Positions 22,834-36,814 of a stretch of 64,000 nucleotides of DNA are shown one piece after another (the stretch's first letter is position 1; the number at the start of each line of letters is the position of its first letter). Made by a program: the position numbers and the translations under genes. The notes beneath the pieces are model-generated. The model saw only the letters and a program-made list of their open reading frames with translations, made no database searches and was not told the DNA's origin. Source of the DNA: Rhodoblastus sp. (GTDB lineage: Bacteria; Pseudomonadota; Alphaproteobacteria; Rhizobiales; Beijerinckiaceae); assembly GCF_019449565.1 (NCBI RefSeq), contig NZ_JAGRPM010000019.1:12838-76837 (forward strand), given 5' to 3'.

Positions 22834-22955
22834 ATGCGCAAACTCGATCTCGGCAAGGTCTATCAGAAGCTCGAACCCGGGCCTGTCGTTCTGCTGACGA
22901 CGGCGGAGAATGGCCGCGCCAATGTGATGACGATGTCCTGGCACATGATGGTCGA
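22834..22955 (+). pseudogene. Flavin reductase family gene, 5' part (interrupted by the integrated element)
   Basis: MRKLDLGKVYQKLEPGPVVLLTT..NVMTMSWHMMVE; continues in frame at 36406. Confidence 0.85.
22942..22955 (+). repeat. Left attachment site (core TGGTCGA)
   Basis: CACATGATGGTCGA vs CACATATTGGTCGA at 36392-36405; the 7-bp identical core fits a tyrosine-recombinase overlap. Confidence 0.8.
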
Positions 22956-23180
22956 ATACGGATTTATTGGCTGATAAGTCTGTGATAACAATAGGATGGT
23001 GGGGTGGCCGGATAGTGGCGGAACACGGGGGGACGTGGGTAAAGCGAGGCATGAAAAATATTTCTTGGCACTGCCTTGCTCGGGGCCGTGGTGGCCATCG
23101 CCACGGGAAAAAACCGACCATAGTAAGGGCGTGATTTTTGAGTCATCTATCGGCTATCGATCTACGAAAGGATAAAGCTG

Positions 23181-23345
23181 ATGAAGACCCTTCTGCTGTG
23201 CAAGGCCACCATATCCGTGATGGCGCTGACGGTCCTTCTTGGGCTGCCGGAGGAATCGACGCCCGCGCAGGTCGCAACAGCCTTCGCCCAGTGGCTGGAG
23301 GACACCGGCGGTGAGCTGGTAGACGTTCAGCTCAAACGCCCATGA
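23181..23345 (+). CDS. Small hypothetical protein, 54 aa (below the ORF-track cutoff)
   Basis: AAAGGA RBS then MKTLLLCKATISVMALTVLLGLPEESTPAQVATAFAQWLEDTGGELVDVQLKRP. Confidence 0.4.
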   Translation: MKTLLLCKATISVMALTVLLGLPEESTPAQVATAFAQWLEDTGGELVDVQLKRP

Positions 23346-23673
23346 CGGTAATGAATTTTTGCCGGAGCTCTGAATATGGGGTGCGGCTTCCACACGACTG
23401 ACAAACATGACGCGGTCTTACACGCAACGTGCCCCGCTCCGGAATGCTCTCGTGGACCAGAATTATTTCCGGCAAGTCGTAGTCGTAAGCGCCCGAGATT
23501 TTCGCACAAATTAGACACGTCGCCGTCGCGCTGTCGAGGACGGCCCGACAGATGGCAAGATCCACATCATTGCGGTCCCGCCGAGCCATGGCTGTCGGAA
23601 CATCGATTAGCCTAATAGAGGTGGGGCGGGTGCGGTCCTTGGCGGCGGCTGGGGGCTTGGGCTTGGTGGTCAT
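23332..23673 (-). CDS. Hypothetical protein with two CxxC motifs (possible Zn finger)
   Basis: CLIC...CQSC; start overlaps the upstream stop (ATGA). Confidence 0.55.
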   Translation of the reverse strand: MTTKPKPPAAAKDRTRPTSIRLIDVPTAMARRDRNDVDLAICRAVLDSATATCLICAKISGAYDYDLPEIILVHESIPERGTLRVRPRHVCQSCGSRTPYSELRQKFITVMGV

Positions 23674-24188
23674 GCCGTCACCATGGTCAGCCGCCGCTCT
23701 TGGCGAAGGGCTTCAAGGCGACGCGCTACCCGCTCGTCAAAGGCGATCTTGGCCAGTCGCCGGTTTTCGGCGCGCTCGAGCTTCATGCGCTCGGTGTCCT
23801 CTGCCAGTAGCAGCGCCTTGGCCGCGCGCTTTGCCGCCAGCTTGTCCATGCGCCGGGTCAGACGTTCTTCCCTGAGCTGCTGCTCCGCCCGGACTCGGTC
23901 GGCTTCAAGTTGGGCTTCAAGCTGGACCTGACGTTCGGCGTCCATGCGGGCGGCTTCAAGGACGTGCTGCTCCCGCTGGAAGTTGGCATAGGCGATGGCA
24001 TGGGCGGTGACAGACCGCTCGTAAGCGCGCAGGACCATGACACACTCAACCTCCCAATGGTTCGCCGCCACGCCGTCGCCGTTGGCATAGGCTAACGCCC
24101 TTTGCCGTTGGGCGTCGCGCAACTGGATGCGAAGACGGTCCTTGGTGATGAAGGCGTGCAGGAGGTCAAGGCGTGTTTTTTCAAGCAT
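23670..24188 (-). CDS. Hypothetical coiled-coil protein
   Basis: 172 aa, E/R/A/L-rich helical composition, coupled to the next gene. Confidence 0.6.
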   Translation of the reverse strand: MLEKTRLDLLHAFITKDRLRIQLRDAQRQRALAYANGDGVAANHWEVECVMVLRAYERSVTAHAIAYANFQREQHVLEAARMDAERQVQLEAQLEADRVRAEQQLREERLTRRMDKLAAKRAAKALLLAEDTERMKLERAENRRLAKIAFDERVARRLEALRQERRLTMVTA

Positions 24189-24206
24189 GATGTGGTTGTC
24201 CAGGGT

Positions 24207-24557
24207 CTACGGCACGCGCCAAACCGGCGTGGCGCTGTTGGGACTGCGGGCGTCGGTGTGGAAGGGTGGCGTTGGTGGAGTGCCTGCGTCCCAGACCGGC
24301 AACGCGGCGGAATCGTGTGACTGGTCGCTTCCCGCAGCCGTGGCCAAGTCCGCCACGACTCTGACCGGACATGCGCCGCCATCATCCGCTTGCGAATTTG
24401 GCCAAGGGCCACCCCCCGGCTGGGGCACGAAATAGACCGGCTTCGCCGATTGAGCGTCCGTCTGCGAACTGGGCGGCTGACCTGTCCACGTTGGGCGTGG
24501 GACGATGCAAACCGGAATGGCCCCCGCTTCCAAATTCTGTTTGTTGGGATAGCTCAT
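24207..24557 (-). CDS. Protein built of five ~24-aa repeats
   Basis: A-x-P-V at residues 13, 38, 62, 85 and 109; start coupled to the upstream stop. Confidence 0.65.
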   Translation of the reverse strand: MSYPNKQNLEAGAIPVCIVPRPTWTGQPPSSQTDAQSAKPVYFVPQPGGGPWPNSQADDGGACPVRVVADLATAAGSDQSHDSAALPVWDAGTPPTPPFHTDARSPNSATPVWRVP

Positions 24558-24880
24558 CAGCTAAGACCTTTCGGTGTCCGTACCCATTGAGCGTAGGTGG
24601 CGGACAAGGAGCTTTCGCCAGCATCCACGGGGGCATCCATGGCGTCCACGACACCCGCCGTAGGATTGCACCGGGCGGGCGTGGTGGGCGGGGCCGTTGG
24701 CGTGGGCGGGTCCATACCGGGCGGAGGCGGCGGGGCCTGTGTGGCGTCCCCTGCGCTCTGGTCGAAGCTGTATCGGGGCGCCGGTGGCGTAACTGGAGCT
24801 AAGTGACCGAACGCCCTTGCAGCCATGTCCACGATCCGGCGGGCGAGGGGGACGTGACGGCGGGCAAGCTGATGGAGCAT
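24557..24880 (-). CDS. Proline-rich hypothetical protein
   Basis: 107 aa; TGATG-type overlap with the next gene. Confidence 0.45.
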   Translation of the reverse strand: MLHQLARRHVPLARRIVDMAARAFGHLAPVTPPAPRYSFDQSAGDATQAPPPPPGMDPPTPTAPPTTPARCNPTAGVVDAMDAPVDAGESSLSATYAQWVRTPKGLS

Positions 24881-25105
24881 GGCAGGCCTCGTGGAAGGTG
24901 GAGCCGCCCAACGCGGAGACGATGACGTCAGGCGGCCCCGTGCCCGCTCGAATACTCTTGATGCCGCTCAGAGAGTATCGACGTGCGGGAACTCAAATGG
25001 TTGGGGCGGCAACGCATAAGGGACATCGCCGCCCCGGTCCTCACCCCCGGCCAAGGGGCTAGGCTCTGGCCACGTAACCGAGCAGGAGCGTGGCCAGAAT
25101 TCAGT

Positions 25106-25684
25106 TCAGACCCACAGCGACCGCGACCGCTCAACAATCTGAGACGGGGTCAACATGCGGACGTGCTTCGCTGGCAATGTGAAGTCGCGGACGAAACTTT
25201 GGCGCGAGAAGAACTGATTTTCTTTGTGCCCAGAGACGGGATCGACCACGCGCCGCATGACCATCTCACCGTCTGGCACGGCATCGTTTGATACAGCAAA
25301 CCTCGAGACTTCATCGAATAATTGAGCCTCTAGGTTTGTGAAGGCCGCGTTCTTCGGCAGGGCGGCGAAATCCACCCGCTTCAGCTCAGACGAGTTTGGG
25401 AGACGCTGCTGCAACTCGCTCGCAATCCTCGAGCGGTACGAGAATTCATCTTCACCCGGCAATGCCCTTGGCGCTGCTCGATTGAATAAACTGAGCACTT
25501 CGTCGCACCTCGACTGAGCCTGCCTACAGGCGCTGTCCGCCCGTTTTTGGCTTTCCTCCCGCTCAGCAATTTGCCGGCGACGAAGGTTCTCCCGCGCGGT
25601 GGCGTCTTCAGCTTCAATCTTGTCCATGGCTTTATCGATGCTGTTTAGCTTGGACATGACGCGGTCTAGCATTGTGGACATCAT
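25106..25684 (-). CDS. Putative head scaffold-like protein (resembles the C-terminal part of DUF2213-type phage proteins)
   Basis: GGAG RBS; N-terminal coiled coil, then AQSRCDEV...APRALPGEDEFSYRSR...VDFAAL...EAQLF. Similarity is recalled, not searched. Confidence 0.55.
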   Translation of the reverse strand: MMSTMLDRVMSKLNSIDKAMDKIEAEDATARENLRRRQIAEREESQKRADSACRQAQSRCDEVLSLFNRAAPRALPGEDEFSYRSRIASELQQRLPNSSELKRVDFAALPKNAAFTNLEAQLFDEVSRFAVSNDAVPDGEMVMRRVVDPVSGHKENQFFSRQSFVRDFTLPAKHVRMLTPSQIVERSRSLWV

Positions 25685-25883
25685 TGGTCTCCTTTATTTG
25701 ACGACGAGTTCGGGTATGGAGCACCGGCCCCCGGCGGTGTGGACATGGGGACGTTCCCCGGAGTGTCGTCGCCACGGCCATTGCTGGGACTCGACCCCGC
25801 ACCGGGTGAGCGTGGTTTGGTAGCACCCGGCGAGGGCTTGCTGTGAATCGTGCTGCTGCGGCTGCGAACGGTCTTCATGGCAG

Positions 25884-26240
25884 TCAAGCTCCAGCCGCCG
25901 CCCGGTGACGGGGGCGGTCCAAGGTGGGAATGGGGTTGATGGGTAACGCCCGGTCGAAGTCCCGGAGGCTGCTGGCGTACACCTGAGCCTGTTGTGGCAA
26001 CACGGCCGCCGCGTTGTCTGGCATCAGAAAATGGAGCCGAGTCTCGGGTTGGATTTCGTTTTCAATGAGCAAGGCCGTCGCGGCGTCCCGGATCGGGCTT
26101 GGCGTGTCGGTAATGACGACCACACCACACAGGCGACTGACGGCGTACAAACCGCCGGGGAGGGCGGAGACGCGGAGTCGCAGGGGGGAGGGACCAACAG
26201 CCATAGCTCTGCACACGCAAAAAAGAGACTTTGCGGGCAA
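25884..26240 (-). CDS. Hypothetical protein
   Basis: 118-aa ORF co-oriented with the element; no motif recognised. Confidence 0.3.
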   Translation of the reverse strand: MPAKSLFCVCRAMAVGPSPLRLRVSALPGGLYAVSRLCGVVVITDTPSPIRDAATALLIENEIQPETRLHFLMPDNAAAVLPQQAQVYASSLRDFDRALPINPIPTLDRPRHRAAAGA

Positions 26241-26703
26241 GACGGATGTGTAGTTGGTGGATAAGTGAGGTAGATGGTAGTATTGAGGCCCTGCCCGGGA
26301 TAAAAACAGCTTACGGCGTTTTTTGGGGTTTGGGTACTGTTATTGCATATCACTCGGTAATTACTTGTATCGTGGTTTTTACCAGTCCCAGACCAGCACC
26401 TTTTCCCGCGCGGCTGTTCCATGTCCTCGACCAAGTCCATAACTCTGTTTTAGTTATGAGTATATCTTGGAAGTGAGTTCATAACATCTTGGTGCAGGCA
26501 ACCGGTTTGATCAGATGAAGGCGGTCGAGCCCCAACGCCGCGCCGATGAACGCCTTGGCCACGCTATCCATGTGTGGTGGTGCAACCACACATGCGGCCC
26601 ATAACAGTCTAATACGGTTCCAGAGGTGTTATATCATTGATATACCGAGCTTTTTTCTCGACCATGACCATCAGCGGATGCGATGCGGATGAGTTGGCGG
26701 GGG

Positions 26704-27321
26704 TTATTCCGCAGCCTCGCTGGACTGCTGGTTGCCCTCAAACACGCGAACAGCCGACACCAACGCCCCGTGATAGCGTGCCAACCTGAATCCGTTCGTG
26801 ACGTGGTTAAAATGGTCATAGGCCAGCTTGGCCAAGGCGTGATCATCGGCCGTGAGATTCTGGTCGTACTGGGCCTTCCAAAGGGCGGTGCGAACGATGT
26901 TGGTGCTGGCCGTGGGGAACTGCTCGACAATGGCCAACACCAACCGCAGGGCCGTGATCGTTGGTTCTTTGGTCAGCGTGTCCCGGACAAGGTCCATGAT
27001 TTCGGTGTTGAACCTTAAATGGTTGGGGAACTTGCCCCGGTGGACGGGCGGCAACTCGACCATAAGGTCGCCGGTGATCTCGTCAAGGACAACAGGCTTC
27101 CAACCCGAGGAACTCGGCGGCGTTGGCGCGGCCATGGCGGCTTTGGCGAATTTTGCGCGGGTGTCCGGGGTGGCGTTCTTCCAAGCGGTGACGAGCGCCA
27201 CGAGATCGGGGGACGGCTTCACCGGTTCCGCCAATTTGCTGGACATGGACGTGTCCAGCTTGGTGGCCGGTTTGGTGGCCGAAGAAGTCGTGGAGTTTTT
27301 GAGGTCCATGTGCTTGGTCAT
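26704..27321 (-). CDS. Hypothetical protein
   Basis: AAGGAA RBS; 205 aa with a low-complexity N-terminus and a helical C-terminus. Confidence 0.6.
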   Translation of the reverse strand: MTKHMDLKNSTTSSATKPATKLDTSMSSKLAEPVKPSPDLVALVTAWKNATPDTRAKFAKAAMAAPTPPSSSGWKPVVLDEITGDLMVELPPVHRGKFPNHLRFNTEIMDLVRDTLTKEPTITALRLVLAIVEQFPTASTNIVRTALWKAQYDQNLTADDHALAKLAYDHFNHVTNGFRLARYHGALVSAVRVFEGNQQSSEAAE

Positions 27322-27661
27322 TCAGGTATTCCTTTTCCGTGTTGTTAAAGACGTGTTGGGTGTCGGACGTGTAGGGAGCGCCGTGGGCTGGTTTGGGGAG
27401 CCGTTGGGGCGGGGTAGTACCGGACAGGGTGGACATCCCAGCCCACACCCTCCGGTGCTGGCCGGTGCCCCCGCCGGTGCCCCGGCAACTGCCCCGCGGC
27501 GGCGTGGAGTTGGTGGGTTACGGGCTGGGGGGCAGAACTGGCAACATCCTCTACGGGCTGGGGGGATAGAACCACGCCCCTTGCAGCTTCCTCGGTCCTG
27601 GATCACTTCCTCCAAGGATCCACGTGAGTAAATAAAATACGGGCAGGGGGGACAGGGCGGT

Positions 27662-27733
27662 GGAAGGTGGGGAACGTAACACGCCCGTCACCCCCTTTAG
27701 GGGGTGCCAGTGTTGTGTTCCTCCCCATCCTCC
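27662..27733. repeat. Long imperfect inverted repeat downstream of the helicase (candidate replication origin)
   Basis: Core CACCCCCT-TT-AGGGGGTG (27689-27706) with flanking AACAC/GTGTT, GGAAC/GTTCC and GGAAGGTGGGG/CCCCATCCTCC arms. Confidence 0.5.
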
Positions 27734-27803
27734 GTAACCGGCCGCCCCTACAGCCTTGAATGTTGGTATGAGGCCTTTGTTACCGGCCCCATACCGTTTG
27801 ACC

Positions 27804-29057
27804 TCAGAACGGCAGCAGTTCATCCCCGCCCATCCAGACCAGCACCGGCCGGCTGTTGTCGCCCCTCAGCACACCAATCTTACGCTTCTCCTCCGCATCA
27901 GCGAGGCTGCGGCTGAACGCAACCTTGCGTGACTCAGCCGAGATATCCTGCCGCTTCCCGTAGAACGCTGCACGCAGCCGCTCGGCATCGTGCGCCATCA
28001 CTTCCACAGTCCCGACCTTGTGGGGCTGCCCACCTCCCCCCGCCTCGATCTCCTTCATGCACTCGACAACGATGTCCATGTTGAAATTGGTGGACGGCTC
28101 CTTGGTCTTGGTGGCCTTGCTCTTGGGCGAGCGGTCTTCCGCCTCCTCGCCGACATAAGCCCCCTTCCACTCGACAATGGCGGGAGAGCCCTCCGACTCG
28201 GCGGTCAGGTCAAACTTGACAGGCGGCAGGGGATCGCCAGCCCTGAACTTTTCAAACACGACACGCCGGTTGCTGTGAACCATCGTTGCAATATCAATGT
28301 CGGTCCGCACGCTCAGAATGGCATCATAGGCCGCCGTCTTAGCCGATGATCCACGCGCCCCCTTCGTCTGGTCCTTACCCAGATGGTCAACGACCAAAAA
28401 CAAGACTTGGTGCTCATGCGCCAGCCGGGCCAGCATGGCCAGAACCCGGTCCACCTCGCCCGCTTCATTCTCATTGCTGAACATGGCCCCGCGCGTCAGG
28501 GTGTCCACAACGACCATGCGCAGGTCACCGCCACCATGCTCGGCCACCTGTTCCTTATAGCGAACGATCAGAGTTCCCAGCCATTCCTCAGCGTTTTCGT
28601 CCGTTAGCGCAATGCGGGTGCGGGTCGGGCGGCCGAAGGGAACCTTACTCAGGTCTGTTTCCCCGTACTTACGCCGCAAGGTCTCGGCCGCCCGTGGTGC
28701 CACCGATGGCGCACCTTCATAGGCCAACCAAAGAACCGCACCCGGAGCCAGCACCTTACGCCCGGCAAACTCGCCGCCTTTGACTACAGCGAGGGCCGCG
28801 TCATTGACCGCGTAGCTCTTTCCCGCATAGGCCAAGCCCAGAACGGTGGCCACGCCGACCAGCGGCAGCATGCCTTCAACCAATTGAGGCTCGGGTGTCG
28901 GCTCCTCGTCCCCGAGCCACGTAATGCCGTAATCAGCTTCCTCGATCACCGACCGCACTTGGACAGAGGTAGTGCTCCGCCGCCTGCTAAAGGCGTCGTC
29001 CTCCATCAGTTTTTCCGCCCGCTGTTCGTCCCAAAAGTTGTCTGAATGATTATTCAT
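27804..29057 (-). CDS. AAA_25 / RepA-like replicative helicase
   Basis: LVEGMLP, Walker A GLAYAGKS, LAYEG, Walker B MVVVDTL, VVDHLGKD...RGSSA. Confidence 0.88.
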   Translation of the reverse strand: MNNHSDNFWDEQRAEKLMEDDAFSRRRSTTSVQVRSVIEEADYGITWLGDEEPTPEPQLVEGMLPLVGVATVLGLAYAGKSYAVNDAALAVVKGGEFAGRKVLAPGAVLWLAYEGAPSVAPRAAETLRRKYGETDLSKVPFGRPTRTRIALTDENAEEWLGTLIVRYKEQVAEHGGGDLRMVVVDTLTRGAMFSNENEAGEVDRVLAMLARLAHEHQVLFLVVDHLGKDQTKGARGSSAKTAAYDAILSVRTDIDIATMVHSNRRVVFEKFRAGDPLPPVKFDLTAESEGSPAIVEWKGAYVGEEAEDRSPKSKATKTKEPSTNFNMDIVVECMKEIEAGGGGQPHKVGTVEVMAHDAERLRAAFYGKRQDISAESRKVAFSRSLADAEEKRKIGVLRGDNSRPVLVWMGGDELLPF

Positions 29058-29071
29058 TGCTCTGCTCCCAG

Positions 29072-30622
29072 TTAGCGCAGGTAAACTTCAACATCGACGC
29101 CTGCGCGCGCCCATTGGTGACAGGCAACGGAGGCCGCCCGCCTTTTGTCCTCACCGACAAGGAGCTTCACCTTGTGGAAGCCGGTGCCGATGAGGAGTGT
29201 TTCGATACCGTTGACGGCGACCACGACCGGCCCATGACCCGCCCGTTGCAGCCCGGTCACCAGCTTGTCTGTGACCACGAGGACGTCGCCCTCGCAGGCG
29301 TCGGTCAGCCAGATGCCGCCGCCATGGGCCGGGCCATGGGTCGTGATGGAGCCGTCCAAGCTGACCGACCAGACGCCACAAAAGCCATCCGTCACGCGAT
29401 GTAGGGCAGCCCAGACGGTGGGCCGGTCAGGGGTGAAGCGCAGGCGGGTCAGGGCCGCCGAGGGCAGGGCGTCGAGCTTGGCGTGCTGGAGCAGCCAGCG
29501 TTCCCCGTCCGTGTCGGCGATGGGCTGGGCGTTGTGCCACAAGGGCCGCACCAGATCGACCTTGGCGGCGTCCTCGGGCCGGGGGGCTGTGGCCACATCA
29601 AGGTTCTTGGAGCTCCACCCGTAATGTTCATTAGCGATGTGAAATATCGTCGCCAGTGTGTAGGTTTTACCGGATGTCCTGAGCCTGAACCCGCTGTAGG
29701 TCTTGACCGTATAGCGTGGGTCATTTCTGGTACATAGCGCCGACCAGCGATAAAAGAGGTCGCGGTAGGCCTCCGCTAAATCAAAAGCGTCGGCGCTGAC
29801 ATCCCCCGAGTCCTGCTCCTCACGATCCGGGCAGACGTTGCCATGTTTCAGGTTGTCAGCCTCGACGCCGGCGCGCTTCAAACCGGCGCAGACCTTCAAC
29901 CATGTGTAACGGTCAACTCCCTCGCCCCGGTTGTTGATGGCCATGACGGCACTGGCTACCTCAGCATAGGTCGGGGCAGAGCCTTGGGGCTGGGGTGGAG
30001 TCGGAGGGACGTAGGGCTGGCCGGACAGGTTCGGTCCCGCTACCCGGAGCAGCCATTCCAAATCCTCAGGCCGCAGGGGAGCAATAGCGTCGCCTTTGAT
30101 TGATTGGCCAGTGAACGCAAACCAGCCCTCAAACTTGAGCTCGATGGCCAGTGGATGGCGGCCCTTGCTTTGGACCTTGGTGAAGGTGCGGTTGTGGCAC
30201 TCTCCCCCCGACACCCGTTCAAGGTCTTCGACGTCCTGCTTTTTGATTAGGCAGTAGATCTTGAGGCCGGTTTGACTGGGGCTGATCTCGGTGTAGGAGT
30301 CGAGGCGATCAACGATGTCCTGTGCCCATGGTGTTAGCTCGCCGGTGTCCGTGTCGCGGCAGCTATCGAGGTCGACGCCAAAGATGGGGAAGGATTTCTG
30401 GCCAAGGATGAGAGCCAGGCCTTGGGTAGGGGAGGGTTGGCCAACAGCAGCGGCGGCGACGGCGTAGGGTTGCCACGGCTCGGCTCTTGTGTAGGACGCC
30501 CAACGCCGGGTGATTGGATCGCGCGGGGCGCCCTTGTTCCATGAACCGTCGTCGCGTTGTGTGGCCTGCCAGTAGGCCCAGACGGGGGCATCTCTAAGAA
30601 GTAATTTTGTTTGTGTATTCAT
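29072..30622 (-). CDS. Primase-polymerase (AEP-type) with PriCT-2 and an extra C-terminal domain
   Basis: GVDLDSCRD, WAQDIVDRLDSYTEISPSQTGL; PriCT-2-like YTWLKVCAGLK..FYRWS..TLATIFHIA. Confidence 0.82.
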   Translation of the reverse strand: MNTQTKLLLRDAPVWAYWQATQRDDGSWNKGAPRDPITRRWASYTRAEPWQPYAVAAAAVGQPSPTQGLALILGQKSFPIFGVDLDSCRDTDTGELTPWAQDIVDRLDSYTEISPSQTGLKIYCLIKKQDVEDLERVSGGECHNRTFTKVQSKGRHPLAIELKFEGWFAFTGQSIKGDAIAPLRPEDLEWLLRVAGPNLSGQPYVPPTPPQPQGSAPTYAEVASAVMAINNRGEGVDRYTWLKVCAGLKRAGVEADNLKHGNVCPDREEQDSGDVSADAFDLAEAYRDLFYRWSALCTRNDPRYTVKTYSGFRLRTSGKTYTLATIFHIANEHYGWSSKNLDVATAPRPEDAAKVDLVRPLWHNAQPIADTDGERWLLQHAKLDALPSAALTRLRFTPDRPTVWAALHRVTDGFCGVWSVSLDGSITTHGPAHGGGIWLTDACEGDVLVVTDKLVTGLQRAGHGPVVVAVNGIETLLIGTGFHKVKLLVGEDKRRAASVACHQWARAGVDVEVYLR

Positions 30623-30738
30623 CACCAACCGCCCAAGATTTTTTGGGGCGGGAAGGTCAAAGCAGCTTTACAAAGTCGGACAGGTGGGCTATACCTAGAT
30701 TGCTTTGCTACCCGCCTACCTGTTCAACCTGAACAAAG

Positions 30739-30769
30739 AACGCCTCCGCACCAACGGGGGCGTTTTTTT
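30739..30769 (+). terminator. Intrinsic terminator-like hairpin, possibly bidirectional
   Basis: AACGCCTCCG-CACCAA-CGGGGGCGTT followed by a T run. Confidence 0.55.
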
Positions 30770-30926
30770 GTGCTTTGCACATCACGCCACTATTGTAACC
30801 TGCCTCAGGCTAAGCTGCTTCCCGCGGTCCTGTAAAGGGATAAACGCCGAGGGAGCTATGCTATTACTGCCGGACAGCGCCTTTTACCTATGCAGCTCTT
30901 GCATGACAGCGCCTTTTACTTGGGGA

Positions 30927-31313
30927 TCAAAACGCGATCTCCCGGCCCCGCTGCCGTTCTGCTGCCACCATCTTCCGCAGCTCCAGCATGTGGGGGCCGG
31001 TGGCTACGCCCTCGCCATACTCGTGGAAGACCGTACCGGCCTCGTCAATAATTGCGCGCACTTCAGAGCCAGTGTAGTCGATGCGCTCCCAAGCTTCATG
31101 AATGGCCGGGACCAGCCATTCCCTGCTGCCGGTCTTAATGATCACCCAGATGCTGTCCCGGTGTGCGTAAAGGCCGAGGATGTTGCTACCTTCCACGCGG
31201 AGCTGGATCTCCACCAATGGCCGCCTTGCTTCAACAAAGCCCAGCAGCCGGTAAAGGTCGTTCACACAACAGCAGCACTCGTCACTGTTGGTCTGGTGGA
31301 CTACTGGGCGCAT
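30927..31313 (-). CDS. Hypothetical protein
   Basis: 128 aa, overlaps the stop of the upstream gene. Confidence 0.45.
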   Translation of the reverse strand: MRPVVHQTNSDECCCCVNDLYRLLGFVEARRPLVEIQLRVEGSNILGLYAHRDSIWVIIKTGSREWLVPAIHEAWERIDYTGSEVRAIIDEAGTVFHEYGEGVATGPHMLELRKMVAAERQRGREIAF

Positions 31314-31678
31314 GTCGTCGATCCTGCCGTGTTTGCCAGACCAAAAACATCCTTAAAGAGCCGGTAGGTCTTGATGTCCTCCGGTGGTAGCATTTCATCC
31401 CCCGGGAGAAGACCAAAGAGCGTCGCAACGACATTCCAATACTCACGCATGATCCTTGAGGTTTTATTGTACGGGTCATCCCTCAAGCGCGCGGCCATGA
31501 ACTCGTTGACATCAACAAAGTCGCTTGTGCGGTGCATGTGGACTTCTATTTTAGACCGCAGGCGCATGGCGTAGATTTTCAGTTCCCGTCCCCACGTAGC
31601 AGTAGACTCTGAACGTCCTTTGTCGCGCAGTTTTTCATAGACCGTGTCGGCCTCATGCCGGCGTTGTTGATGGTTCAT
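31301..31678 (-). CDS. Hypothetical protein
   Basis: AGGAGG RBS before MNHQQRR. Confidence 0.6.
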   Translation of the reverse strand: MNHQQRRHEADTVYEKLRDKGRSESTATWGRELKIYAMRLRSKIEVHMHRTSDFVDVNEFMAARLRDDPYNKTSRIMREYWNVVATLFGLLPGDEMLPPEDIKTYRLFKDVFGLANTAGSTTCAQ

Positions 31679-31811
31679 TTTTGCCTCCTGTTTGACCTGA
31701 ATCCGGCGCTGGCGCATCCGCACCAAGTCCGCATTTTGGTAGTGCCCCCGACATCATGCTCTATGTCGTTGGAATCACGGTCTATTTTCCGGACGTATAC
31801 AGACTAGTCGA

Positions 31812-32051
31812 TTATGTGCCGGTCTTTGCGACGGCCTCGGCATAGGAGGAGAAGGTCAAAGCTTCTTCAAAAGCCTCGACATCCTTCACGCGGTAGAAAT
31901 AGGAACGAGGACCGATACGTAAAAATTTGGGACCGGTCCCGCTGCACCGCAAGGAGGAGATGTGGTTGATTGACCGGCCCCAACGCTTGGCGAGGTCAGC
32001 AGTGGTGAGTAGATCGGCGGCGGGGGTGCGGTTGTTGCTTGGAGTGTTCAT
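31812..32051 (-). CDS. AlpA/Xis-like helix-turn-helix regulator
   Basis: LLTTADLAKRWGRS...GTGPKFLRIG...YRVKDVEAF. Confidence 0.88.
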   Translation of the reverse strand: MNTPSNNRTPAADLLTTADLAKRWGRSINHISSLRCSGTGPKFLRIGPRSYFYRVKDVEAFEEALTFSSYAEAVAKTGT

Positions 32052-32202
32052 GTGGTTTACCTACTAGTTCCAAAGGATATTGGAGGGTAAACCGTGTTCG
32101 TGGGCAATGTCCAGTGTTATTTGTGTACAAAGCCCTTTACAAGCTTGTATAACGGACTTTACAACTACAGGCAATCAATAATAGTGAGTATAGAAAACAG
32201 GC

Positions 32203-32418
32203 TTACTCGACGGCATGGGGTAGTTGGACGCCAGACAAGGCCATCGTGTAGCTGTTGACCGCTGCCTGTAGCTCTTGTCTACGCCGCAACAAGACCTTTG
32301 AGCTGCATTTACCGGCGTAATGATCCCGCTCCGCCTTGGTGGCGCGGGCGCGGCAAGCATTGAGGTTGTCACGGGTCTTCTGTACTTGGACAGGGTTAGA
32401 CATGGTGATCTCCGTCAA
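32203..32418 (-). CDS. Hypothetical protein coupled to terL
   Basis: Start overlaps the terL stop; 71 aa helical. Confidence 0.5.
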   Translation of the reverse strand: MTEITMSNPVQVQKTRDNLNACRARATKAERDHYAGKCSSKVLLRRRQELQAAVNSYTMALSGVQLPHAVE

Positions 32419-34037
32419 TTCTGGTCGTAGGCCAAGAGGATGCCGTACACCCCCGCGTCCAGCAAATCATCGGCACGCCGGTAGGCTTGCTTGTCCCCGA
32501 CCCTGAAGCTGCCGAACTGCGCCAGCAAATGGTTGCGGACGACGCCCTTCAACTTGAGAGTCTTGTTGAATGCGTGGTCGGTAATCTTGACCTGCCCCTC
32601 GTTGACCAAGGGTTCCGCTGCCAATGCGCGGAGGTCTTTACCACGGGCCACAAGATGGCTCGGGATGGGCTGGCAAATGTGCGGGAACTTCGCCAGCAAC
32701 ATCTCTCCCAACGCCACGCCCTCGATGTAGATGCCTTGCTCGTTCAACCGGACCTTGTCCCCGGTGAGCTCTTGCAGGCGTGCCTCGCACGTCAACAACC
32801 ATTGCTCAACGTCAGCAGCTCCAACTTCTACGGCATCCCAATCGAGTATGAAAAGGCCACGGGGCTCAAGGTGGACGTTGAGGCCGAAGAAGACGCAGGC
32901 CGCCGCATCGTTTTCACTACCGCCCTTCACGGCCGAGTCGATCACGGCAAAGGCGATGTCAAAGGTCTTTGGGACCGGCGGGGCAACACCGTCAACTAGC
33001 AGCTTGGTGATGCTGAACAGGGCGAGGCCACTGAGGTCCACGAACTCAGCAAGGAACTCCTGCCTGAAAATTAGCGGGTGATGGACACGCGAAAGCCTGT
33101 CCAATTCCTTGGCCGGCAAAAAGGGATTTTTTGAGCTGGGGGCATGGAACTGCGTAAATCCAAGCTCGGTCTGGTGGCATATCTTATAAAAAAAATTGGA
33201 CTCGTCGATGCCGTTTGGCGTTGAAGCCACGACAACATCACCGGCGAAATCAGAATAATCGAGTGTAGTTGCCAATATACTCGCGTCGTAAATGTCGCTC
33301 AGGTCCGGGCCACCAAACGCGGCCTCGTCAATTAGAACGCGATGGTACTTGCGGGACCGGCCAGCTCGTTCATGCTCAAGGGACCAGCATTCAATAGACC
33401 CGCCTCCGGGCAAGGAGAGGTACCCGGCGCTCTTGTTGGACGTGTCCGCGACACCGCCCAGAACCATGTCAAGGGCCATGAAGGTCGGGGCACTGAGTTT
33501 GTAGGTGGGAGCAAAGATTCCACAGGCCCGACCAAGCAAAGCATCATCGATGGCGAGGGCCGTTATGAGAGCGGTCTTGCCAAACCGGCGACCACAGCGC
33601 AACGCCGTGAAGCGTCCGGATTGGATGGTGGCCAAGGCGTCAATCTGGCCTTGGTGCAAGGGGCCGTCTGGCAGGCGCAGCACACTATTAGGCAACCCTA
33701 CAGCTTGCAGGGCTTGCGCTGGGTGGCCTTCGTCGGCGTGGGTGGTGGTGGCGTCCCCGGCAGCAGGCCGGAGGCCGCCCACGACCAGCCTCTGGGCGCC
33801 GTGGACCATGGCGTCATTGTGGGCGCGCTGGGTGAAGTCCGTATAGAGTTCGCCCTGACCCTGGATGGTGGTAGAGACGATCCGGCCCTTGGCATCGGTC
33901 GCGCGAGCAAAGTCGGCACGCTGGCCGGTGAGAAAGTCCACGGCGGCGAAGGTGCGCAGGGCCGGCGCGCTCCGGGTGGCCAAGGCCGTGCTGAGCATGG
34001 ACTGGACTAGGCGGCTGGCCGTGGCGAGGTTGCTCAT
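32415..34037 (-). CDS. terL: Terminase large subunit
   Basis: Walker A CGRRFGKT, Walker B VLIDEAA, coupling STPNG, FRQEFLAEF, nuclease IDSAVKGG..ND and DDLLD. Confidence 0.93.
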   Translation of the reverse strand: MSNLATASRLVQSMLSTALATRSAPALRTFAAVDFLTGQRADFARATDAKGRIVSTTIQGQGELYTDFTQRAHNDAMVHGAQRLVVGGLRPAAGDATTTHADEGHPAQALQAVGLPNSVLRLPDGPLHQGQIDALATIQSGRFTALRCGRRFGKTALITALAIDDALLGRACGIFAPTYKLSAPTFMALDMVLGGVADTSNKSAGYLSLPGGGSIECWSLEHERAGRSRKYHRVLIDEAAFGGPDLSDIYDASILATTLDYSDFAGDVVVASTPNGIDESNFFYKICHQTELGFTQFHAPSSKNPFLPAKELDRLSRVHHPLIFRQEFLAEFVDLSGLALFSITKLLVDGVAPPVPKTFDIAFAVIDSAVKGGSENDAAACVFFGLNVHLEPRGLFILDWDAVEVGAADVEQWLLTCEARLQELTGDKVRLNEQGIYIEGVALGEMLLAKFPHICQPIPSHLVARGKDLRALAAEPLVNEGQVKITDHAFNKTLKLKGVVRNHLLAQFGSFRVGDKQAYRRADDLLDAGVYGILLAYDQN

Positions 34038-34519
34038 TGATCGCCGCTTAGCAGAGCTTGCAGCTTGGCGATATTTCCTTCCAGCTGAACACCAACGAGC
34101 AGTTCGGTGAAGGCCTTTGCGCCGTCGATTAGGAATTTCGCGGCGTCGGTGTCGAGTTCCCCGGCAGTCGCCTTTTCCAGTACCTTTGAGACGAATTGTG
34201 ATGCGTCCGTCGCCGTCACCAGCTTGGGCAAGTCTGCACTCGGTTCAATGAAGCGCAGGGGCGGTTTCGGGCTGGGCTTCGATTCAAGGTAAGCGGTTGC
34301 GGCGCGCAAGCATGCAAGCTTCAGTTCGGGGTCAACTCCCTCGGCGTGGGCCATCTCCATCATTTCAATGGGGCCGCGTTTCCATCCACGCTTTTCGAAC
34401 TCGTCCAGCAGCTCTTGAGTGCGCTTGTTGGGGGTTCCTTTTGCTCGCCCCATCCCAACATTCTGCAAGGTTTCGGGATGCCCCCTACTCTTCGCTACCT
34501 TTGGGGATTCTTTGGTCAT
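34034..34519 (-). CDS. terS: Terminase small subunit-like protein
   Basis: GRAKGTPNK motif; lies directly upstream of terL with an ATGA overlap. Confidence 0.7.
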   Translation of the reverse strand: MTKESPKVAKSRGHPETLQNVGMGRAKGTPNKRTQELLDEFEKRGWKRGPIEMMEMAHAEGVDPELKLACLRAATAYLESKPSPKPPLRFIEPSADLPKLVTATDASQFVSKVLEKATAGELDTDAAKFLIDGAKAFTELLVGVQLEGNIAKLQALLSGDQ

Positions 34520-34593
34520 CAGAATAGTTCTCAGTAGTTGCTTATCCGACGCAAACAATACCCTATTGGCGGTATCTCAGCAACTATTGTGTA

Positions 34594-34779
34594 TTATTCA
34601 GGACGCCGGAACAACACAACATTATCCCTCAATACTGGCTCTATCCTTGATCGTGGTCTAAGAGCCAAGGCCACACGGCAAACCACCACGACCAGCCTAC
34701 ACACCGCCCAGCCCGAGGCCATGACAAGAACATAGGCCAGCCAGCCGAGGACCAGCATCACCATGGCCAAGCTCAGCAT
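34594..34779 (-). CDS. Small membrane protein (~61 aa)
   Basis: MLSLAMVMLVLGWLAYVLVMASGWAVCRLVVVVCRVALAL; overlaps the upstream stop. Confidence 0.45.
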   Translation of the reverse strand: MLSLAMVMLVLGWLAYVLVMASGWAVCRLVVVVCRVALALRPRSRIEPVLRDNVVLFRRPE

Positions 34780-34985
34780 TTGGGGGCTTCCCGCGCCGCC
34801 TCGGGCCAGCCATAAATGATGGTGTCGATCTTGATGGAGCGGGCTTCCAGCGCCGCCAAAGCCGCTCTCTTGTGCTCCGGCGTGCGACACACCATCGCAA
34901 TCAGCTTGGTGTAAAACGGCACCATGCTCTCCAACAGCTTGGGCGGCCCATCCGCGATAGTGAATATCGTGAAGTCCTCGTTCAT
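34773..34985 (-). CDS. Small hypothetical protein directly after the integrase
   Basis: ATG 3 nt after the integrase stop; 70 aa. Confidence 0.45.
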   Translation of the reverse strand: MNEDFTIFTIADGPPKLLESMVPFYTKLIAMVCRTPEHKRAALAALEARSIKIDTIIYGWPEAAREAPKC

Positions 34986-34988
34986 GCC

Positions 34989-36230
34989 TCAGCCCTGCTT
35001 CTTCATCGGGATTACGTTGGCGGTGTCGACCTTACCCTCGGCGAGGAACTGCCCCCACATCCTCAAGGCCTCGGCGCGCTTCTCGGCGAAATCGTGCTGC
35101 TGGTAGATGAGTGCGACCGAGGACAGCGACGACGACTTATGGGCCAAAAGCTTGTCAGCCACGTCCACGCCGACACCCTTCTTCGCCAGCCAAGTGACCC
35201 CCGACCTGCGGAAATCATGATAGGTCCACGGCTTCATCACAGGGCCGCCGTCCCGTACCAGCGCCTCATCGAGCGCCACCTTGATCCTCTGCATCCCGCC
35301 CATCACCCTTAGGCCGTCCGTGGTGAAGACGATGTCGCTCGTGTCATGCCGTGGCAGGGTGGCCAGCACGTCCTTGGCCGGGGGTGCAAGATCCACCCGA
35401 TGCGGCTTGGCCTGCTTCATCCGTGCGCCGGGAATGTGCCAGACGTCCCCGGTGATCTCCGCCCAACGCAAACCGAGGGCCTCGGTGCGGCGAACCAGTG
35501 TGAGCATCAGGAAGCGGACATAGGCCGCGCGCAATGGGGACAGGGTACCAGCCGCCGCCCAAACACGGTGCAACTCCTCCTCCGTCAGGGACCGGTCGCG
35601 GGCTGCACCGGCCGGGGGCAGTTTCAGCCGGTCGTCCAGTTGGTTCACGTCAATATGGCCCTCGCTGTAAGCCCAGCGAAACACCGCCTTGATTCTTACG
35701 GCCGCCGCGTGCATCGCGATGGGGCCGCTGTTGGCGCGCACAAGATCCAGGGCCTTGGACACATCTTTGACCTGAATGGCGGCAACCGGCTTGGCCAGCA
35801 GCCCAGCGAAACCGCGCGTCAAGGACGAGAGGGTAACCTTGAGCGAGTTGGGGCGGCATTTGGGGGCCATGGCCTTCTCCCAATCGCCCAGCAGGACCGC
35901 GAGGGTGAAGGCGTCGGCCTCCCGGCGCTGACGGAGAATGGCCTTGTCCTCCTCGCGTTTGGCGAACGGGTCCAAGGTCGTGACCATGGCGGCCGATTCC
36001 AGCTTGGCCAAGTTGCGAGCCTGCATCACCGTCAGGTTGCCGAACCGGCCGAGCGCCTTGCGGAAGCTGCGCCCGTCCTTGGTGCGGCTCTGGAATAGGA
36101 AGGTCTTGCGCCCCGACGACGAAACGCGGACGCCCAGCGAGGGCGTTTCGGTGTCAAACACAAGGTAGTCCTTGCGGGAAGGCTCAGGTTTCAAGCCGTT
36201 GACAGAGGTGTCGGTGAATTTGATTGCCAT
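34989..36230 (-). CDS. int: Tyrosine integrase with arm-DNA-binding (DUF4102-type) N-domain
   Basis: FTD..V..LKP..DTETPSLGVRV..SGRKTF; catalytic R (LVRRTE), HDFRR, LLAH and Y (IYQQH). Confidence 0.95.
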   Translation of the reverse strand: MAIKFTDTSVNGLKPEPSRKDYLVFDTETPSLGVRVSSSGRKTFLFQSRTKDGRSFRKALGRFGNLTVMQARNLAKLESAAMVTTLDPFAKREEDKAILRQRREADAFTLAVLLGDWEKAMAPKCRPNSLKVTLSSLTRGFAGLLAKPVAAIQVKDVSKALDLVRANSGPIAMHAAAVRIKAVFRWAYSEGHIDVNQLDDRLKLPPAGAARDRSLTEEELHRVWAAAGTLSPLRAAYVRFLMLTLVRRTEALGLRWAEITGDVWHIPGARMKQAKPHRVDLAPPAKDVLATLPRHDTSDIVFTTDGLRVMGGMQRIKVALDEALVRDGGPVMKPWTYHDFRRSGVTWLAKKGVGVDVADKLLAHKSSSLSSVALIYQQHDFAEKRAEALRMWGQFLAEGKVDTANVIPMKKQG

Positions 36231-36351
36231 GATTTTTGCGGACCTTTTGCGGACGCGACCCGGATGGTGTTAGGTGCGTTTCTTGGCCCTTATATGCGAT
36301 CCGGCTAATCAGTCGTCAAGGCCGCAGCCCTTGTAAACCAAGGCATTCAGA

Positions 36352-36380
36352 GGTTAGCGGGTGTTAGCGGGTGTTAGTTG
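36352..36380 (+). repeat. Tandem 10-bp repeats next to the right att site (putative integrase arm sites)
   Basis: GTTAGCGGGT GTTAGCGGGT GTTAGTTG; a further GTGTTAG near 36267. Confidence 0.6.
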
Positions 36381-36391
36381 TAAAGGTCCGT

Positions 36392-36405
36392 CACATATTG
36401 GTCGA
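36392..36405 (+). repeat. Right attachment site (core TGGTCGA)
   Basis: Matches 22942-22955. Confidence 0.8.
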
Positions 36406-36814
36406 GTTCAATCCGCCGCTGATCGCCTGCGTTGTCAGTGAGGGTGATTACTCGCATCGGGCGCTGAAGAAGACCGGCGAATGCGTGCTCGCCATTCCAC
36501 CCGCCGAACTTGCTGGGACGGTGGTGGCCATCGGCAATTGCTCGGGGCGCGAGGTCGATAAATTCGGGCGTTTCGGCCTCACGGTCAGACCAGCAAAAGA
36601 AGTTGCCGCGCCGCTGATCGACGAGTGCATCGTCAATATCGAATGCAAGGTCGTGGATCGCGCGCTCGTGACGGCTTACAATCTGTTCGTTCTAGAGGCG
36701 GTGCGGGCCTGGATCGACCCGAAGAAGGCCAAGGCCCGCACCCTGCACCATTGCGGCTATGGCCGCTTTCTGCTGGATGGCGAGGAGTTGCGACTGCGGT
36801 CCGCAAAACCATGA
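36406..36814 (+). pseudogene. Flavin reductase family gene, 3' part
   Basis: (E)FNPPLIACVV..GECVLAIP..IGNCSGREVDKF..APLI.EC..NIECKV..TLHHCG.G.F. Confidence 0.85.

Follow-up and report, generated by a model that had tools for sequence, protein, structure and literature searches.

A stand-alone relative of the scaffold half of DUF2213-type phage head proteins, encoded in a satellite-like island of Rhodoblastus sp., is a candidate capsid-size redirection factor

In a 64,000-nucleotide stretch of the Rhodoblastus sp. contig NZ_JAGRPM010000019.1 (positions 12,838 to 76,837 of the forward strand, hereafter the window), a minus-strand open reading frame (ORF) encodes a small protein, termed here the mini-scaffold, which is almost certainly homologous to the C-terminus of DUF2213-type phage head proteins. 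The gene lies in an island of 13.45 kb that is very probably a phage satellite. The best explanation of these data as a whole, to which we assign a probability of roughly 0.5, is that the satellite encodes a shortened copy of a helper phage scaffold and redirects capsid size by scaffold mimicry. The gene in question is as follows:

25106..25684, minus strand: stand-alone mini-scaffold gene; 66-residue N-terminal helix plus an alpha/beta domain of ~125 amino acids (aa), homologous to the C-terminus of DUF2213 protease-scaffold proteins.

The ORF at 25106..25684 (-) comprises 192 aa when read from its first ATG. An AAGGAG ribosome-binding site (RBS) is found at 25694-25689, with a spacing of 4 nt to the first ATG and 7 nt to the second; public gene calls start at the second ATG (25681), resulting in 191 aa. 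A promoter and terminator scan gave signal no higher than background. The protein motifs quoted in an earlier note on this DNA (AQSRCDEVL, APRALPGEDEFSYRSR, VDFAAL, EAQLF and EMVMRRVVDPVSGH) are all present in the translation. An AlphaFold2 (AF2) model built from a 28-sequence alignment was confident (mean predicted local distance difference test, pLDDT, 91.3) and displayed one long helix (residues 2-67), behind which the chain folds into a compact alpha/beta domain; this domain contains two helices (80-92 and 113-130) and, at 141-160, a beta-hairpin. The earlier note had read a coiled coil in the N-terminal part, of which the helix stands, the model predicting a single helix there.

Scans of the mini-scaffold against curated libraries (Pfam, NCBIfam and PADLOC) matched nothing meaningful, and PF09979 (DUF2213) was not detected by Pfam even at E<=0.1. 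In PHROGs, by comparison, residues 14-159 matched phrog_6216 (‘unknown function’) with E=1.2e-12 at profile positions 383-523 of 545, which make up the C-terminal quarter in a phage protein of greater length. Exhaustive HMMER searching of 1.84 billion representatives revealed a family of 448 cluster representatives at E<=1e-3, 41 of them at E<=1e-10, and with these homologues the gene is more than a chance ORF. Among the best 150 homologues, 62 are 186-235 aa in length, 41 are 236-360 aa and 17 are longer than 360 aa, and in the longer homologues the matching part is always C-terminal. Comparison of the mini-scaffold with the fusion proteins by phmmer gave E of 1e-8 to 1e-13, with the ~130-residue domain forming the C-terminus of phage head proteins 300-1256 aa long. 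Alignment of the stand-alone family profile (A1) with that of the full-length family (A7) by hhalign resulted in a match of 99.95% probability (E=2.2e-38), spanning 131 columns at the extreme C-terminus of the full-length family. That the mini-scaffold resembles the C-terminal part of DUF2213-type head proteins, as claimed in the earlier note, is thus borne out by phrog_6216, phmmer and hhalign, with the correction that the region it matches lies outside the Pfam DUF2213 model.

Other searches added little. A word-indexed homologue search with the mini-scaffold retrieved itself alone, the same search with the family profile gave three further proteins, and tblastn against 50,697 phage records yielded no match. 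Profile scans with the alignments of the family and of the island's large terminase (TerL) found no relatives among GTDB species representatives, and viral and metagenome scans returned phage-type loci and short contigs and nothing else new. A match to P0028 was rejected as a repeat-protein false positive. When the PDB was searched by sequence with the family profile and one full-length relative, nothing but coiled-coil noise came back, and Foldseek of the AF2 mini-scaffold against PDB and BFVD gave nothing at E<=0.001. Of the HHpred/Foldseek check proposed in the earlier note, the profile half was positive by hhalign, and there was no structural match to a solved head protein.

Alignment with the full-length proteins (A3) located the parts missing from the window protein. 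Its N-terminus, LDRVMSKLNSIDKAMDKIEA, pairs with IDKVLSHLDSISKRLDAFE, a conserved helix that directly follows the DUF2213 domain and carries the motif LDKVLSxLDSI in the long proteins. The entire DUF2213 domain is missing, and after the first helix the window protein lacks ~60-150 residues of a charged linker before it realigns over the whole C-domain. In a small sample, the helix motif and an AP..E..YR motif are ~65-81 residues apart in the short forms, against 108-215 in longer proteins. A protein that matches part of a phage gene only, in an island where the other head genes are missing, might be a functionless leftover: of a prophage head module that has decayed, the 3′ part of the protease-scaffold gene would have survived. 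We consider such a relic very improbable: the gene has its own RBS and start codon, the product is modelled confidently as a full-length fold, the size class is conserved with many diverged members, a conserved gene module recurs in independent integrase-bounded islands, and no other head-gene fragments were found in the island. What the earlier note had termed a ‘truncated’ scaffold belongs instead to a conserved stand-alone class of ~200 aa.

The long relatives offer a view of what the mini-scaffold may have been derived from. P0084, P0093, P0100, P0121, P0124 and gp04 of Pantoea phage PdC23 possess an N-terminal PF09979 domain above the cut-off; the match of the long relatives to phrog_6216 extends over the full length (E between 1e-91 and 1e-147), and their DUF2213 part matches phrog_530 ‘head maturation protease’. 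Their family alignment contains invariant His90, Ser141/Ser143 and His176, a pattern that would be compatible with an assemblin-type Ser-His-His site. The AF2 model of P0084 (mean pLDDT 79) displays an N-terminal alpha/beta domain, long helices at 228-400 and the same C-domain as the mini-scaffold. Its top Foldseek matches in PDB are almost all herpesvirus assemblins, together with the T4 gp21 capsid protease (probability up to 0.98, template modelling (TM) score up to 0.48, E-values 3e-3 to 1e-1). We found no paper giving DUF2213 proteins a function. Based on the model, the DUF2213/phrog_6216 phage proteins are likely composed of an assemblin-like protease, a helical scaffold and a C-terminal domain, and the best reading of them, by analogy with UL26, lambda C/Nu3 and P2 gpO, would be fusions of a protease with a scaffold. 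In these known systems the C-terminus of the protease-scaffold docks on the capsid protein, and the phage C-domain may dock in the same way.

In the phages, the protease-scaffold gene is located between the portal (PF06381)/MuF-like gene and the major capsid gene. The gene order of PdC23 is TerL, portal, MuF-like head morphogenesis protein, NUDIX-DUF2213-C-domain protein (553 aa), a 290-aa protein and major capsid protein, and it is repeated in Rac-SA53 and in the metagenomic phages L015, L019 and L021. Split protease/scaffold versions also occur among phages of this family; on one phage contig the scaffold half is a separate 341-aa gene right behind a 364-aa NUDIX protein. The 290-aa gene between the fusion and capsid genes was considered as the real scaffold gene and rejected, its product being Gly/Ser/Thr-rich and uncharged. 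A conserved Gly/Ser/Thr-rich protein of ~290-300 aa is always encoded between the protease-scaffold and major capsid genes (L004:5303-6175; L019:10477-11385), where no further gene is present, and in PdC23 it is labelled ‘endosialidase’.

Many of the protease-scaffold proteins carry an N-terminal NUDIX hydrolase (P0047, P0078, P0100, P0110, P0111, P0120, P0126, P0145 and L004:3625-5286), P0110 also an ADP-ribosyltransferase and P0124 a tail-lysozyme domain, which suggests that enzymes are carried into the capsid via the scaffold. If the C-domain simply delivers such enzymes into the virion, its place at the end of head proteins may be incidental, and the mini-scaffold might have a non-capsid role as a regulator or anti-defence factor; the function of the domain is not defined by any solved structure. 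This alternative seems improbable to us, since delivery of cargo to the capsid is itself targeting to the capsid interior and would use the same binding activity, and in phages the gene is always in the head module.

The mini-scaffold gene resides in an island at ~22942-36407 that interrupts a host Flavin_Reduct (flavin-reductase) gene. Its other features, with those of the flanks, are as follows:

22834..22974, plus strand: 5′ fragment of the flavin-reductase gene (Pfam profile positions 5-31).
22942..22957: left, attL-like junction, CACATGATGGTCGAAT, at the break in the Flavin_Reduct gene.
23332..23673, minus strand: 113-aa CxxC...CxxC protein, conserved in L011.
23670..24188, minus strand: 172-aa coiled-coil protein with conserved counterparts downstream of the L009 and L011 mini-scaffolds.
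24207..24557, minus strand: 116-aa ORF, part of this module; the gene beside the L009 mini-scaffold is 72% identical to it.
25884..26240, minus strand: small ORF upstream of the mini-scaffold, conserved in the sister islands L009 and L006/L007.
27804..29057, minus strand: AAA_25 replicative helicase-like ATPase (AAA_25 at 2.8e-26).
29072..30628, minus strand: DNA primase (PHROG primase families, E down to 6.6e-16; weak PriCT_2 match).
31812..32051, minus strand: AlpA/excisionase-like HTH_17 protein (E=1.8e-5, 25.3 bits against a Pfam cut-off of 27; phrog_66 excisionase/regulator, 4.6e-5).
32415..34037, minus strand: intact TerL (Walker A GRRFGKT, Walker B LIDEAAF, nuclease Asp motifs; phrog_2 at 2.9e-25).
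34034..34558, minus strand: putative small terminase (TerS), 174 aa, by position; stop overlaps the TerL start; homologues in L009 and L011.
34989..36230, minus strand: tyrosine integrase (Arm-DNA-bind_3, Phage_int_M, Phage_integrase; phrog_1 at 1.8e-49).
36371..36814, plus strand: 3′ part of the flavin-reductase gene (profile positions 30-140).
36392..36407: right, attR-like junction, CACATATTGGTCGAGT.

The sequences CACATGATGGTCGAAT and CACATATTGGTCGAGT constitute an imperfect 16-nt direct repeat (13/16 identical); the 3′ part of the flavin-reductase gene is not restored by the island. All plausible island genes, including a further 70-aa ORF, are on the minus strand, save one 54-aa plus-strand ORF at the left end. 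Among the island ORFs there are no tail, lysis, portal, capsid, protease or head-tail connector genes, and none is big and unassigned enough for a portal or major capsid protein, in agreement with the earlier note, which had described the island as lacking a capsid gene. The putative TerS had no family match in Pfam, PHROG or NCBIfam scans, and none of the small island ORFs matched Pfam or PHROG families, including those of Sid, Psu and Delta homologues. Also without family matches are the 172-aa and 113-aa ORFs, which could encode further morphogenesis or interference factors. No tRNA or Rfam match was found near the island, and comparison with the source-run contigs revealed no excised, empty-site or second-copy form of it.

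Two repeat regions were observed in the replication part of the island. A non-coding gap of ~480 bp directly downstream of the helicase gene contains three TACGGGC(T/A)GGGGGG copies and other short repeats (27519-27655), which are candidate replication-origin iterons, as in the Staphylococcus aureus pathogenicity islands (SaPIs). Upstream of the primase gene, an intergenic tandem 32-nt direct repeat (30856-30919, 78% identity) is a candidate operator or regulatory site.

The composition of the island is close to that of a phage-inducible chromosomal island (PICI): in ~13.5 kb it combines an integrase, a candidate AlpA-like regulator, primase and helicase genes, a gene that may act in capsid morphogenesis and a putative TerS, so that it provisionally fits four of the five PICI core components (PMC10085698). 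Both the integrase and the primase-replicase module of a PICI are present. The island differs from PICIs in that its TerS is assigned by position only and in that it carries TerL, whereas a PICI would have no other phage structural or packaging genes. TerL has been used as a marker specific for capsid-forming PICIs (cfPICIs) (PMC10085698); the island shares with these elements its own TerL and a putative TerS but is without their capsid, portal, protease and head-tail connector genes.

The TerL also links the island to a type of helper. Both TerL motifs quoted in the earlier note, VIDSAVKGGSEND and RADDLLD, are present in the product of ORF 32415..34037 (-). tblastn of this TerL against phages gave 17 records, 14 of them strong (38.7-39.9% identity, E 1e-75 to 3e-81), and the 14 strong records are the same 14 that are matched by the DUF2213 fusion protein P0084, namely five Yersinia vB_YenM phages, Actinobacillus pPE4, Rac-SA53, Pantoea PdC23 (two records), Shewanella QDWS, zrk29-1, Klebsiella Chronis, RothC and RothD. 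In both phages checked (PdC23 and Rac-SA53) the portal is PF06381 (formerly DUF1073), and the capsid protein of PdC23 has a weak match to PF09950 (formerly DUF2184). The earlier note had assigned the TerL to a family found in DUF2213 phages and had pointed to a DUF2213/DUF1073-portal phage as helper. The first claim is confirmed by the 14 shared records; the relatives of the TerL being DUF2213-fusion phages with PF06381 portals in both cases checked, a helper of this type is therefore predicted. The phage match covers only residues 127-537 of the TerL. Its first ~125 residues form an N-terminal extension which the matched phage TerLs (439 aa) do not have and which is conserved in the satellite TerL of L017 (L017:817-2475, 45% identity over 524 aa); this extension may be a satellite-specific docking or TerS-binding domain.

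To place the window gene among its relatives, the contexts of eight short forms of <=211 aa were surveyed (window, L001, L006, L009, L011, L016, L017 and the P0152 contig). None of the eight adjoins a portal or capsid gene. Six (window, L006, L009, L011, L016 and L017) are in islands with integrase and/or primase, some with a putative TerS, and these six islands contain no portal- or capsid-sized unassigned genes. The seven cases outside the window are as follows:

L006 (P0002): Toprim/D5_N primase island.
L009 (P0003): Prim-Pol/DUF3987 island.
L011 (P0004): D5_N primase and integrase island.
L016 (P0010): integrase, Toprim and AAA_25; adjoins a Flavin_Reduct gene.
L017 (P0011): TerS-like gene, TerL 45% identical to that of the window, integrase.
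P0152 contig: small ORFs only, no island hallmarks.
L001 (P0040): nanopore-type contig with no recognisable island genes, its context uninformative.

L017 repeats the window layout TerS-TerL-...-mini-scaffold-integrase, and in L018 a 273-aa form of the family is located inside a 15-kb element with AlpA, primase, TerL and HNH genes. The same element encodes a 327-aa protein (L018:9168-10151) that matches phrog_196 ‘baseplate hub’ (E=1.3e-22), which is odd for a satellite-like element. BLAST comparison revealed a module common to the window, L009 and L011, consisting of TerS-like, orf118-like, orf116-like, mini-scaffold, 172-192-aa coiled-coil and 113-aa CxxC genes. Within it, the 116-aa ORFs of the window (24207-24557) and L009 (L009:9633-9989) are 72% identical whereas the mini-scaffolds are 37% identical, suggesting very different constraints on both genes or a recent exchange. 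The Flavin_Reduct gene of L016 (L016:5655-6185) stands beside an unrelated mini-scaffold island, which hints that Flavin_Reduct genes are a preferred integration target.

P0003 and P0004 come from the same freshwater-sediment sample as the window (ENA ERZ3898269), and the three contigs have similar coverage (10.9 for NODE_90 with L009, 11.0 for NODE_72 with L011 and 10.3 for NODE_77 with the window). Their mini-scaffolds are 33-39% identical and their primases are of different types, PriCT_2-like in the window, Prim-Pol/DUF3987 in L009 and D5_N in L011. One population probably carries three such islands; in a sample that is a true sediment metagenome, the near-equal coverage no more than suggests that they share one genome.

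The sister islands also bear on how the mini-scaffold acts. TerL and mini-scaffold occur together in the window and in L017, and the satellite TerLs share the conserved ~125-aa N-terminal extension, as would be expected of an assembly or packaging adaptor that nucleates capsid protein at the helper portal or recruits the satellite terminase, resulting in normal-size heads with island multimers. L009, L011, L006 and L016, however, contain the mini-scaffold but no TerL, and because of these four sister islands its role is not tied to a satellite TerL, making an adaptor quite unlikely.

The mechanism that we favour, size redirection by scaffold mimicry, builds on the observed homology, domain architecture, satellite context and link of the TerL to a helper type. 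The mini-scaffold would copy the scaffold half of the helper's head protease-scaffold as a shorter protein standing alone, which would have kept the post-protease helix, about half of the charged helical linker and the ~130-residue C-terminal domain and dropped the assemblin-like DUF2213 protease domain. During helper infection, the C-domain of the mini-scaffold would bind the helper major capsid protein from inside, at the site normally used by the helper protease-scaffold, and the long N-terminal helix would oligomerise. The shorter spacer would lead to a tighter shell, for example with a triangulation number T=4 in place of T=7, holding about one 13.5-kb satellite genome packaged by the satellite TerS/TerL and excluding the helper genome of ~44-52 kb; the helper's protease would finally remove the mini-scaffold. 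Of these steps, binding of the capsid protein is, by analogy, somewhat probable, oligomerisation is one that we infer, and redirection of capsid size, again by analogy, has a chance a little short of even.

Size redirection is favoured because of the genome ratio, the linker of about half length in the short forms and the precedent of CpmB and Rcm. The island (13.45 kb) has 0.26-0.31 of the size of the DUF2213-fusion phages (43.8-52.3 kb), and the genome ratios of SaPI1/80alpha and P4/P2 are close to these values. CpmB and Rcm change capsid size as mimics of the helper scaffold, with which they compete for the capsid protein via conserved motifs (PMC12409344, citing Dearborn 2017).

The same C-domain homology would also fit a protein that only interferes, a decoy that fills the docking site of the protease-scaffold, poisons helper procapsids and protects the host population without forming functional small capsids. 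Satellites often interfere with helpers (PMC12409344, PMC10945586), and shells filled only with a mini-scaffold that has no protease domain might not mature. The island's own TerS and TerL nevertheless imply packaging into helper-derived heads, and a pure assembly poison would stop the satellite's own transfer too. Furthermore, the helix and partial linker are kept at a tight 186-235 aa (62/150 representatives), which suggests an architectural role. Interference alone is thus an unlikely function.

Several points weigh against size redirection by scaffold mimicry. The assemblin match of the N-domain of the long proteins is statistically weak (best E=2.8e-3), the C-domain fold had no solved or BFVD relative in Foldseek, and the capsid-binding role proposed for the C-domain is drawn from its position and from the analogy with UL26, Nu3 and gpO. 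No helper phage was found in the window, in reachable sample contigs or in reference genomes. A satellite with its own TerS/TerL could spread as multimers in full-size heads, with capsid size unchanged, and the neighbouring 116-, 172- and 113-aa ORFs could encode the real remodellers. Moreover, genomic context was surveyed in a small number of cases, 8 short and about 6 long, and contigs <2 kb hold most of the family.

Compared with known systems, the mini-scaffold is similar to SaPI1 CpmB and SaPIpT1028 Rcm in being a small helical satellite protein that shares conserved sequence with a helper-type scaffold and is shorter than it (Dearborn 2017, cited in PMC12409344). Likewise shared is an integrase/primase/TerS island without a capsid gene, and competition for the inner face of the capsid would be expected here by analogy. 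The sharing of scaffold sequence is seen here with the DUF2213 phage family in general and not with a specific helper. No sequence relation to CpmB or Rcm was detected, and neither family nor structure searches gave a link. The protein mimicked is a DUF2213-type protease-scaffold fusion and not a free scaffold, and what is shared is an alpha/beta domain of ~130 residues in place of a short helical motif (RIIK, for example). The island differs further in carrying TerL and in its host, a high-GC (about 62%) freshwater-sediment bacterium and not Staphylococcus.

Nu3 and UL26.5 are protease-less proteins that share the C-terminus of the capsid protease (lambda C/Nu3 and UL26/UL26.5; a comparable case is P2 gpO). 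The phage relatives of the mini-scaffold resemble UL26/UL26.5, lambda C/Nu3 and P2 gpO in their modelled arrangement of assemblin-like protease, helical scaffold and C-terminal domain. Unlike UL26.5 and Nu3, the protease-less form here and the protease are encoded on separate genetic elements, and the linker of the protease-less form has about half the length. Its gene also does not lie between portal/MuF-like and capsid genes as those of DUF2213-type head proteins do. P4 Sid and PLE TcaP (PLE, for PICI-like element) are satellite-encoded capsid-size determinants too, but they form external lattices unrelated to the helper's internal scaffold, and no island protein had a PHROG or Pfam match to Sid or TcaP. 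By function the mini-scaffold is closest to CpmB/Rcm and by origin closest to the short scaffolds of the Nu3/UL26.5 type. We found no paper describing this satellite type; the protein family and the satellite architecture are undescribed, and the strategy is one already known.

To our knowledge, phage satellites are known to remodel capsids in a few ways only (by Sid, CpmAB, Ccm, Rcm and TcaP), and we know of hardly any remodellers from outside Staphylococcus, E. coli and Vibrio. A broader and rather doubtful extension would be an undescribed, widespread lineage of proteobacterial satellites, with the window island as the first member to be recognised. Its hallmark would be a mini-scaffold taken over from the assemblin-type protease-scaffold gene of the helper, in which the halved linker would serve as a molecular ruler for a smaller triangulation number, and the diverged copies within one population would each be tuned to a different helper or be engaged in an arms race with one. 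What is unusual here is a satellite protein demonstrably homologous to a defined domain of a helper-type head protein. The family provides a sequence marker (>400 cluster representatives) for a new satellite class in environmental Proteobacteria and predicts the type of helper, one with a PF06381 portal, a DUF2213 protease-scaffold and a PF09950-like capsid protein. It also points to a likely function for uncharacterised DUF2213/phrog_6216 proteins, namely an assemblin-like protease fused to a scaffold. The mini-scaffold itself is a good candidate for hijacking or shrinking helper capsids, and the system lends itself to a clean test of the idea that capsid size is set by the length of the scaffold.

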